Shown here: positions 27,001 through 30,000 of the stretch, in pieces
How the letters are laid out: each line of letters opens with the position of its first letter
Position numbering within the stretch: the stretch's first letter is position 1
Assembly: GCF_013177435.1 (NCBI RefSeq)
Contig: NZ_CP053627.1
Location: 300,001-332,000 of the forward strand
Source of the DNA: Xylella taiwanensis
GTDB taxonomy: Bacteria; Pseudomonadota; Gammaproteobacteria; Xanthomonadales; Xanthomonadaceae
DNA length: 32,000 bases
Reading direction: 5' to 3'
Made by a program: the position numbers

Positions 27001-30000
27001 GCAGCAGACCTTGCGTCAGAACGGGTTGAATCCCCACGCCAGCTTCACGGCGACAGCGTCGTGGACGCCCTTGGTGGCTGCACCGTGGCCCGGTCGTTCG
27101 GGCGGTGTCCTTGGATTATCAATGGTCTGGCCGGTAGGGGGGATCGCAGGACAGTGGAACATGGGTGTGGAGCACCACTTTGGTGCACGTGGTCGCGACG
27201 ATAGCCTTGGCCTGCGTTACCAGCTGGGTTTTTAGTCTTGGGTATGGAGGCTGACGCACGGTGATCCCGTGCGTCGGTGGTGTCCCGGATGGGGGCGCTT
27301 TCACCCAGTGGCGTATTGATAGCGCACACATGCTGACACAGCAAGCGTGAGGTCCGGCGTGGGCATGGGTCGCTGACCTGGCGTCACTGGATTGAAAGTG
27401 CGGTGTGCAGATCCAAGCTCTGAGAAGCACTCAAAAAACGGGGAACGCAGTACCCTGATATCCACATTTTCGATACCTTGCTTGCCTGATGTTCCTGATC
27501 GGGGCGATGCAGGATCGGGCGATAGTACGTGTCGCGCTTGGGGTGTTGCTGAAATAGTAAGCCAGCCGCACATGTTGCCATTACTGCTGCAGATGATTTG
27601 TTTTGCACCAGAGGCGGATGTCAAGGCCGTGTCCGGCCAGATCATGATCTGGATGAATGTCAGGTGGATGCTGAGATCGATCCGTGGCGACGTACTAGTA
27701 TCCCCCCCCCCAAACTCTGAGACTTCCAACAGCTGTTGGATGTTTCTATCCTTGATTGAAGGTGCCATGAACATTACCAGTTTGTAACTGGTGGCCCAGC
27801 CCAAGCGGGTTGTTTACGAAGCCGGCTTGTTCACGTTTTTTTCTTTTTCTCTCTGAGACAAAGCATCTAACGCGTATTTAGATTGATAAAAATCAAGTGC
27901 TTGGGTGATAATAATGTGAATTATGTCTCATAAAATGCATGGGCGAAGTGTGTTTTGGCCATGCTTATTCAAGGGGAAAGGAAAACGATGAAAAAGATAT
28001 TTGTTGCCAGGACGATCCTGGCGACGACGTTAACTACTGTCTTGAGTGCTTGCGGCGGCGGTGGATTAGTCCGTCCAGATACCCCCACGACGCCCACACC
28101 CACACCAGCACCCACACCAGCACCCACACCAGCACCCACACCAGCACCCACACCAGCACCCACACCAGCACCCACACCAGCACCCACACCAGCACCCACA
28201 CCAGCACCCACACCAGCACCCACACCAGCACCCACACCAGCACCCACACCAGCACCCACACCAGCACCCACACCAGCACCCACACCAGCACCCACACCAG
28301 CACCCACACCCACACCCACACCCACACCCACACCCACACCCACACCCACACCCACACCCACACCCACACCCACACCCACACCCACACCCACACCCACACC
28401 CACACCCACACCCACACCCACACCCACACCCACACCCACACCCACACCCACACCCACACCCACACCCACACCCACACCAGCACCCACACCAGCACCCACA
28501 CCAGCACCCACACCCACACCCACACCCACACCCACACCAGCACCAGCACCCACACCCACACCCACACCCACACCCACACCCACACCAGCACCAGCACCAG
28601 CACTGCCCCCGCTGGAACCATCGTTAGCCGCCAAGATCCGGATCCACCTTGATCTGACTAATACAGAAGCCGCGCATGCGCTTGGTTTGACTGGTAATGG
28701 CTCCATTATTGGCATGGTCGACTCTGGCGTGAATCGTAACCACATTGCGTTGCAGGGGAAGGTGATCCGCAACGGTATCTATAATTTCTATACGAATTAT
28801 CACGACCCCTCGGCTCCAGACGATGTTGCCGAGCATGGCACCGAAGTGGCACAGCTCGCTGCTGGTAGTCCGGTTAACTACTGGCCCGGTGGCATCGCAC
28901 CCGGTGCGACTATCTTTTCAGCGCGTGTTTTCACGTCTTTAGAAGAAATGGAAGTACAAATACAAGAAGAAATACAAGCAGCACAAAATGGTAGCGTTTC
29001 ACCAGCCGACAATAATTTTGAAGCAGAAGCATCCAAGATACAGCTTATTAATGCCGACATGAGCGCTGCAGGAGTGCGCATCCAAAACAACTCATGGGGC
29101 CATGGGATCGATACAATGTGGACAGATCCAAAGATCACGAGTTTTTTCGTGAATGCCTACAGTGATTTCGTACTCGGCAACAATGGGTTGGTGGTATTCA
29201 CCAGTGGTAACGAAAAGCAACCGCAACCAAACCAACTTGCCAGGCTGCCAAGCTTGCCCACTATGGAAGGTGCGCCATCGGCAGCCGACCTGGAAAGAGG
29301 GTGGTTAGTGGTCGCTGCATTAGACAGTTTTGATCACCCGGACCAGTTGGCTTCTTACTCGAGTCACTGCGGCATCGCAATGCACTATTGCCTGGCTGCG
29401 CCGGGTAATGTCGTGATCATCGATTCCGCCATTACCACCAGCCATGTTGGCAATGATGGCTATCTAATAGATAAAGGCACCTCATTTGCAGCGCCGTTGG
29501 TCTCAGGTGCAGCGGCGTTGGTGTGGGAGGCATTTCCATACTTCAGCAACGACCTGGTACGTCAGACCCTGCTTGGGACGGCCACCGATCTCGGCGCACC
29601 GGGTGTGGACGAAGTATTCGGCTATGGCGCCCTGAATGTGGGTAAAGCGGTGTTGGGTCCGGCCAAGTTTGACTGGGGCGATGTTCAGGTCAACTTCGAT
29701 GACAGGCGTTCAACCTGGGCCAATGACATCAGCGGCAGCGGCGGCTTGATCAAGGGGGGTAACGGAACGCTGGTGCTGGCTGGCAGCAACAACCAATACA
29801 CTGGGGCGACCCAGGTGCTAGGAGGGACCCTCCAGGTGTCCAGCTTGGGTGCGTCCGCGGTGAGCGTGGGTAATAGTGCGACGTTGATTGGTAGCGGTCA
29901 CTTCGGCGGCGGGGTGAGCAATGCCGGGACCCTGGAGATTGGGACCGATGGACTCAAGCTCCAGGGCGATTACATCCAATCAGAGACAGGGCGCCTTGCG

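Follow-up and report, generated by a model that had tools for sequence, protein, structure and literature searches.

Introduction

SphB1 of Bordetella pertussis and NalP of Neisseria meningitidis combine a subtilisin-like protease head of the S8 family with an autotransporter beta-barrel (PF03797) and a lipoprotein signal peptide. SphB1 is held at the surface through its lipidated N-terminal Cys, in the outer leaflet, and exchanging its lipoprotein signal peptide for an ordinary one sets it free (PMC13421274); NalP and SphB1 are believed to depend on such retention by lipid when they process other surface proteins (PMC9289746). A 2022 review of autotransporters places a Xylella fastidiosa protein, 'PspB_X', in the subtilisin-like group with NalP, SphB1 and AasP, citing Chen et al. 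(2008, Appl Environ Microbiol 74:3652), who described 'hypervariation' of the X. fastidiosa protease gene pspB (PD0218). Primers for this gene, PspB-256f (TGAGTGCCTGCGGTGGTA) and PspB-256r (CGAAACTTGGCAGCTAACG), are among those listed in a review of X. fastidiosa diagnostics (PMC5462928). Here we analyse a related locus in the pear pathogen Xylella taiwanensis, within a stretch of 32,000 nt (contig NZ_CP053627.1 of assembly GCF_013177435.1, positions 300,001 to 332,000, forward strand), hereafter the window, numbered from its first letter. The window holds two tandem genes for S8 autotransporters, paralogs 1 and 2, and our subject is a 522-bp repeat tract in paralog 2 that encodes 174 residues, all of them Pro, Thr or Ala (P/T/A). 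We consider it likely that the tract is a translated, slippage-prone variable-number tandem repeat (VNTR), and that it serves as a flexible linker tethering the head of a lipid-anchored PspB-type S8 autotransporter.

A repeat tract between the lipobox and the protease head

The tract, at nt 28081–28602 of the plus strand, is the longest P/T/A-only run of the open reading frame (ORF) 27988–31350, which encodes 1120 residues ending in Phe; it spans residues 32–205. An earlier note on this DNA, made from the sequence alone, had given the same 522 bp and 174 residues, which our counts confirm exactly. The residues are 86 P, 63 T and 25 A, and six codons make up the whole (CCC 61, ACA 60, CCA 25, GCA 25, ACG 2, and ACC 1). 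The features of the gene are as follows.

27988–28053 (+), lipoprotein-type signal peptide with lipobox L-S-A-C, Cys22 at 28051–28053 (motif level)
28054–28080 (+), GGGG-LVRPD segment, the equivalent of the family's poly-Gly plus xRx segment
28081–28602 (+), P/T/A-only tract, an in-frame VNTR of 174 aa
28099–28302 (+), block 1 of the tract, 17 perfect copies of CCCACACCAGCA, encoding (PTPA)17, the same in the window and six other assemblies
28303–28470 (+), block 2 of the tract, 28 CCCACA units, encoding (PT)28, of constant length across isolates
28471–28602 (+), block 3 of the tract, a mosaic of PTPA, PT and PA units that holds all length differences between isolates
28603–28692 (+), junction into the protease fold, with the pspB reverse typing primer at 28622–28640
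28693–29628 (+), Peptidase_S8 (subtilase) domain, aa 236–547 (Pfam PF00082, E-value 6e-43)
29746–29838 (+), passenger-associated transport repeat, PATR (Pfam)
30553–31251 (+), autotransporter beta-barrel, aa 856–1088 (PF03797, E-value 1.4e-32)

The nested repeats of the earlier note (17 copies of the 12-nt unit, about 29 of CCCACA, then mixed blocks) could all be counted, block 2 coming to 29 perfect CCCACA copies from 28303 when the leading half of the PTPA unit that follows is included. One lineage carries two point substitutions within this block, and an example of variation in block 3 is the occurrence of (PT)3, (PT)4 or (PT)5 at 28549–28578. Over the whole tract, CCCACA (read as PT or TP) accounts for 60 of the 87 dipeptide units and CCAGCA (PA) for the remainder. 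Tandem Repeats Finder, the check that had been proposed, finds an array at 28093–28603 that scores 680 at period 6 (82 copies) and 750 at period 48, far above all other arrays in the window. From its composition, the encoded chain is predicted to be disordered. Lys and Arg are absent from it, so the predicted tryptic peptide reaches from Pro30 to the Lys of LAAK (aa 30–216, about 187 residues), and the tract is invisible to tryptic proteomics.

Translation and Pfam together show the order lipobox, tract, S8 head and autotransporter barrel, as the earlier note had it. The tract was further said to come directly after the lipobox Cys and GGGG; the order stands, but LVRPD intervenes (Cys22-GGGG-LVRPD-tract). 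Motifs of the S8 triad are present in the translation, with Asp in MVDSG, His in EHGT and Ser in GTSFAAP, and homology to the Protein Data Bank (PDB) structure 8e7f_A (E-value 4.9e-32) starts 16 residues past the tract end. The reading frame of the tract is fixed by its flanks, because the signal peptide and lipobox on its 5' side and the S8 protease on its 3' side share one frame in the window and in the six other assemblies. Openness of the tract itself is no evidence of translation: its plus strand lacks T entirely (C 322, A 173, and G 27), which makes a stop codon impossible in all six frames. We accordingly rejected as genes the overlapping ORFs 27939–28652 (+), 27969–28772 (−) and 28034–28621 (−), which the stop-free tract alone creates. 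An NCBI X. taiwanensis protein is 100% identical to the protein body, and locus L003 (CP011800.1) has zero mismatches to the window outside the tract. The lipobox N-terminus is common, at the level of motifs, to paralog 1, to a third paralog described below and to the X. fastidiosa orthologues.

The counterpart of the pspB repeat of Xylella fastidiosa

The two typing primers fall at the borders of the tract: PspB-256f is the lipobox sequence (LSACGG), and PspB-256r is the LAAKF junction just 3' of the tract. Their sites in the window, at 28043 with 4 mismatches and at 28640 with 3, are separated by 598 bp. In four X. fastidiosa loci of the PD0218 type (L011–L014) the same primers flank (TP)24 or (TP)25, for in-silico amplicons of 214 and 220 bp. 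Units of the X. fastidiosa repeat are reportedly ACDCCA, encoding Thr-Pro, and those we see in L011–L014 are ACGCCA and ACACCA. Immediately 3' of paralog 2 lies an MFS transporter gene on the opposite strand, and such a neighbour is found both in X. taiwanensis (L003 and L023) and at the PD0218-type loci L011 and L013. Because the primer sites flank the tract and the MFS neighbour is shared, we read the tract as the X. taiwanensis allele of the pspB repeat.

The two species thus share the gene family, the placing of the repeat between the lipobox and a LAAK(F/I) junction, the downstream MFS neighbour, and hexanucleotide Thr-Pro units whose copy number differs between isolates. They differ in that the X. 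taiwanensis units are CCCACA (PT) and CCAGCA (PA), partly joined into a 12-nt PTPA unit, so that Ala is included; in length, 174 aa as compared to 48–50 aa (PD0218-type) and 61–79 aa (PD0950-type) at the X. fastidiosa loci examined; and in the tandem duplication of the gene, unlike the pspB locus of X. fastidiosa. The notion that such a tract was without precedent must therefore be given up: hypervariation of pspB was published in 2008, the typing primers flank this exact interval, and a Pro-rich linker is found family-wide (see below).

Variation at the X. fastidiosa loci is plain from pairs with an identical downstream protein. Some such pairs have 24 and 25 units, and in one pair, where an identical 909-aa protein follows, the P/T run measures 79 aa at L004 and 61 aa at L006. 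The run of a pauca strain is 71 aa long and made of a 12-nt unit. At the PD0950 position, two loci from independent assemblies, L015 (1330–1500) and L016 (850–1000), share one ACCCCCC (C6) amid ACCCCC (C5) units; after this +1 change the signal peptide and the protease no longer share a frame, which could mark a pseudogene or an off state reached by slippage in the C run. The frames of L005 and L009 are broken too; these look like read errors.

Length polymorphism within Xylella taiwanensis

Exact look-ups of the NCBI products P0001 and P0121 matched no contigs, but seven other X. taiwanensis assemblies were reached through the neighbouring gene for protein P0214. Tract length, taken as the number of nt between fixed anchors, was compared for the window and six of these (the seventh, L023, being without paralog 2):

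519 nt, the window and L019 (CP087983)
513 nt, L020 (CP087981)
507 nt, L017 (CP087686) and L018
501 nt, L021
495 nt, L022

There are thus five length alleles in seven sources, in multiples of 6 nt and all in frame, as had been foreseen from unit lengths that are multiples of 3. Sized in this way across isolates, as the earlier note had proposed, the tract is not invariant but ranges from 495 to 519 nt, or from 166 to 174 residues, a maximum difference of 8 residues and at most 5% of its length. The differences track lineage markers and come in clean 6-nt steps. In some 20 kb of surrounding DNA, the assemblies show 1–4 point mismatches to the window, and the remaining differences are all indels, confined to three repeat arrays. 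With flanks so nearly identical and indels in the arrays only, change in the repeat arrays outpaces point mutation. We conclude that the tract is a genuine VNTR, with a polymorphism that is real but modest within X. taiwanensis. It had been taken to be expanding and contracting at present; five alleles do occur amid near-identical flanks, but the change is small and sits in the 3' mosaic only. In every sampled isolate that carries the tract, (PTPA)17 is identical and the PT block has a constant 28 units. Such a pattern resembles neither unrestrained growth and shrinkage of the pure blocks nor a fine adjustment of reach.

An older assembly, CP011800, has a tract of 441 nt with many CC and CCCC runs where CCC is expected. 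We attribute this to read errors in a region that is fragile for sequencing. Recurrence of the same block structure in independent assemblies shows that the length of the tract is real, and the earlier note's alternative of an assembly artefact is taken up below. As for a phase-variable contingency locus, the units are 6 and 12 nt and the seven sources, varying by multiples of 6, are all in frame; phase variation by frameshift at the tract was rejected, since all units and alleles are multiples of 3.

The window has only four canonical G-quadruplex motifs (runs of three or more G separated by 1–7 nt, at least four runs), all within 28303–28581 and 24462–24519 of the minus strand. Both linker repeats, that of paralog 2 and that of paralog 1, carry such motifs, and the sequence there is (TGTGGG)n. 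For the first 120 nt, the predicted energy is −26.5 kcal/mol with quadruplexes allowed and −1.2 kcal/mol without. Quadruplexes of this kind might be one cause of the repeat's instability and of the sequencing errors in CP011800.

Paralogs and gene conversion

Paralog 2 is one of three related genes in the species, two of which lie in the window. The features of paralog 1 and of the sequence that it shares with paralog 2 are as follows.

24353–27235 (+), paralog 1, a tandem duplicate of the same architecture (Pfam, translation)
24458–24522 (+), linker VNTR of paralog 1, (ACGACCCCA)7, a 9-nt unit encoding (TTP)7 in frame
29485–31451 (+), segment 100% identical in nt to 25370–27336, comprising the head end, beta-helix, barrel and 3' flank

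The number of (TTP) copies among isolates is 3, 7 or 8. Identity between the two genes is 100% from about 25370 until past the stop codon, whereas the heads are 51–93% identical per 150-nt window. Because some 2 kb are wholly identical next to diverged heads, the translocators of paralogs 1 and 2 have been homogenised by gene conversion. The third paralog lies outside the window (L002, 2752–3000, in GCA_021206375.1), and encodes LSACGGGGG followed by a 15-nt repeat, (PPSTT)8. One genome thus holds three paralogs with linkers of 28, 50 and 174 P/T/A(S) residues.

The complete assembly L023 (CP087681.1) has one S8 autotransporter gene only, with the head of paralog 1 and (TTP)7, then the MFS gene. 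This state is explained either by deletion through recombination between the identical 2-kb segments or by a collapsed assembly.

The linker in the wider family and in related systems

We examined 150 proteins of the family, of which 88 begin with a lipobox; these come from Xanthomonas, Stenotrophomonas, Luteimonas, Pseudoxanthomonas and metagenomes. All 88 have after the Cys a run of 2–9 Gly (usually at least 5), a short xRx, an irregular Pro-rich stretch (e.g. PPPTSPPPPPPTSPPPP), and then the head. The distance from the Cys to the catalytic Asp motif is 44–77 residues in the 88 homologues and 68 in paralog 1, as against 219 in paralog 2. Identity between the Xanthomonas-group S8 lipoprotein autotransporters and the Xylella proteins is 45–54% over the whole protein body, and the order of parts is the same, with a PEPA-like motif (P-E/Q-P-A) between the Pro-rich linker and the head. 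A Gly- and Pro-rich linker behind the lipobox Cys is thus a conserved trait of the group. The linkers of the Xanthomonas group are short, however, and irregular at the protein level (PPPTSPPPPPP), not perfect tandem repeats; it is peculiar to Xylella that the linker is made of perfect DNA tandem repeats and that, in paralog 2, it has about three times the usual length. A scan of contigs with the protease body returned a single distant metagenome-assembled genome (L001) and no Xylella, and a homologue search with a tract-deleted construct, made of the signal peptide and the head, gave partial fragments for the most part and not one Xylella protein of full length.

With SphB1 and NalP the Xylella proteins share the S8 head, the PF03797 barrel and, at the level of motifs, the lipoprotein signal peptide. 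SphB1 presumably also has Gly- and Pro-rich stretches after its Cys; the 'N-terminal domain' of an SphB1 vaccine construct begins at residue 128, which is consistent with a low-complexity region of this kind. They differ in that the Xylella linker is a perfect tandem repeat at the DNA level and varies between strains; moreover, the closest solved relative of the Xylella head is 8e7f_A, not NalP. A different comparison is offered by the PT boxes of secreted glycoside hydrolases such as CenA and Cex of Cellulomonas fimi, glycosylated linkers of about 20–30 residues that join two folded domains. The tract resembles them in its (PT)n composition and as a putative extended, protease-resistant spacer, but would join a lipid anchor to a domain and has 174 residues. 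Between the Cys and the tract we find only GGGGLVRPD (9 residues), with no folded domain on the N-terminal side, so the tract is not an interdomain linker of the PT-box type.

Annotated start codons

Most of the NCBI records seen for Xylella S8 autotransporters (P0001–P0009 and P0121–P0139) start past the tract. Many have the Leu codon at 28603 as their start and read 'MPPLEPS...' or 'MPPLQPS...'; the starts of others lie beyond it. The NCBI products for the paralog 2 gene, of 878, 873 and 915 aa, also begin past the tract. PD0950 (AAO28814, Q87CV6) is among the records that start past the tract, and a secretome study lists PD0950 as found but without a signal peptide, and PD0313 with one, cleaved at 26|27 (PMC4709584). 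A different gene caller yields full-length products for both genes (1121–1129 aa for paralog 2 and 951–966 aa for paralog 1), and the Xanthomonas homologues are annotated at full length, including the lipobox. We regard the starts past the tract as annotation errors, because an autotransporter needs a signal peptide.

Other features of the window

The third variable array is a perfect heptamer repeat, (GGCACCA)12, at 20402–20486, where there is no convincing ORF. It has 3, 3, 4, 9, 12, 12, 14 and 15 copies in the eight sources (the window and seven assemblies), with near-identical flanks, and is the most variable of the three arrays of the window. It lies in some 7 kb (17000–24200) between xanA (15461–16810) and the first protease gene, with a G+C content of 0.49 and short ORFs only; no significant Pfam matches were found in 17000–24200. 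On the 5' side of this low-G+C stretch are rmlB, rmlA, rmlC, rmlD, xanB, xanA, etfA, etfB and deaD.

A consensus scan gives one weak promoter-like site near paralog 2:

27883–27912 (+), TTGATA-18-GATAAT, 76 nt 5' of the paralog 2 ATG

The scan found 3 promoter sites in the region as against 3.9 expected by chance, and neither promoter nor terminator scans around the genes rose above chance.

Interpretation

The most likely role of the tract, by analogy with SphB1 and NalP, would be that of a flexible tether for a lipid-anchored surface protease. The lipoprotein-type signal peptide would direct export and Cys22 would be lipidated, the C-terminal beta-barrel would export the passenger, and the P/T/A linker would then be the sole connection between the lipid-anchored N-terminus and the protease head. 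As a flexible, extended and protease-resistant tether, it would keep the head on the surface of the cell or of a vesicle while leaving it free to range. The Xylella linkers appear to have been rebuilt from perfect units of 6, 9, 12 or 15 nt, which would be gained and lost by replication slippage or unequal recombination in multiples of 3, and the linker of paralog 2, whether it drifted or was driven, may in this way have become about three times as long as is usual in the family. In a rough estimate, a polyproline-II-like chain at about 0.31 nm per residue gives the 174 residues a contour length of about 54 nm and, at a persistence length of 1.5–4 nm, a root-mean-square span of about 13–22 nm; the contour of a 35-residue family linker would be about 11 nm. 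Against ~54 nm, allelic differences that never exceed 8 residues are negligible, so beyond a certain minimum the exact length is probably near neutral. The tract would then have been lengthened by slippage acting on a linker that needs only that minimum.

Could the length instead be adaptive, tuning the reach of the head (e.g. past O-antigen or gum), or could the tract be an O-glycosylated or antigenically variable mucin-like epitope? An identical translocator design is combined with three very different linkers, and the tract is Thr-rich with an array that varies between isolates; Pro-Thr boxes of secreted cellulases, moreover, are glycosylated in their native hosts. We nevertheless think either of these unlikely, as the differences within the species do not exceed 5% of the length and all lie at one end, and one strain (L023) does without the gene altogether. 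A bacterium of xylem and insect foregut is under no antibody selection, and no O-glycosylation system turned up, although no search for one was made. Less probable still is that the tract threads through the membrane rather than forming a stalk on the surface, with its extra length in Xylella being incidental. The conserved part of the linker, a Gly run and an extended Pro-rich chain, would suit threading, but about 12 residues suffice to cross the membrane, which leaves 174 unexplained, and the pore of an autotransporter is already filled by its C-terminal linker segment. The literature can be cited on both sides: the topology of lipidated autotransporters has been described as undetermined (PMC8151025) and the linker of the lipoprotein RcsF is reported to be able to pass through a barrel (PMC4942254), while for SphB1 an anchor in the outer leaflet is described (PMC13421274).

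We give very little credence to the idea that the tract is untranslated, a 5' leader to a protein that starts downstream, even though the NCBI records for the paralog 2 gene and for most of the X. fastidiosa orthologues seen begin past it. The products so defined have no signal peptide, which an autotransporter needs, and PD0950 was yet found in the secretome (PMC4709584). A canonical signal peptide and lipobox lie in frame upstream at every intact locus, the frame is kept in all seven X. taiwanensis sources, and the full-length calls of the other gene caller and the lipobox-bearing Xanthomonas homologues agree with this. It is just as improbable that the length of the tract is an artefact of assembly. 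Such a suspicion is natural for a perfect repeat of 522 bp, which exceeds the length of an Illumina read; two short-read contigs of X. fastidiosa (L007 and L008) end inside the tract, and CP011800, with its many CC/CCCC errors, has 441 nt where the window has 519. The six other assemblies, however, have 495–519 nt with the same structure of (PTPA)17 and 28 PT units, lineage-consistent differences in 6-nt steps, and zero frameshifts.

Several points weigh against our preferred reading of the tract as a slippage-prone tether. Lipidation, surface tethering and the extended conformation are all predictions, and the final location and topology of the lipid anchor in lipidated autotransporters are themselves described as undetermined (PMC8151025). 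Most NCBI records seen for Xylella S8 autotransporters start past the tract, without the signal peptide and lipobox. That L023 is without paralog 2 and its 522-bp tract would mean that both are dispensable, at least in culture. The constant length of the pure, perfect blocks is unexpected for an array that slips freely, and may reflect either the very low diversity of the sample or selection. Finally, a polymorphism of at most 8 of about 170 residues is uninformative on any function that depends on length.

Significance

An in-frame Thr-Pro hexanucleotide VNTR in Xylella pspB was already known, having been published in 2008, and is a marker for typing by polymerase chain reaction. What we add is the X. 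taiwanensis allele, the longest seen here, with Ala and a 12-nt superunit; the five alleles within X. taiwanensis; a family-wide view, in which the repeat takes the place of a conserved linker between the lipobox and the head; and the finding that the lipoprotein N-terminus is missing from most NCBI records seen. Overall this is a modest advance rather than a new kind of system. The truncated starts have already entered the literature, with PD0950 listed as lacking a signal peptide, and they mask the likely lipoprotein nature of proteins that recur in Xylella secretomes and vesicles. As the counterpart of an X. fastidiosa typing marker, the tract is directly useful for typing pear leaf scorch strains, and together with the nearby (TTP)n and GGCACCA repeats it separates isolates whose 20-kb flanks are almost identical.

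A broader proposal, which we offer as speculative and do not ourselves expect to hold in full, is that the PspB-type proteases of Xylella and the Xanthomonas group are surface-tethered lipoproteins, that the three heads of Xylella would stand at different distances from the membrane, and that the long tether may reach past O-antigen or gum to mature or shed large surface adhesins such as the FHA-like haemagglutinins, in the way that FHA is matured by SphB1. If the tether idea is true, the three paralogs would provide a ready-made set of linkers of graded length, all on an identical translocator, with which effects of tether length on a surface protease could be tested.

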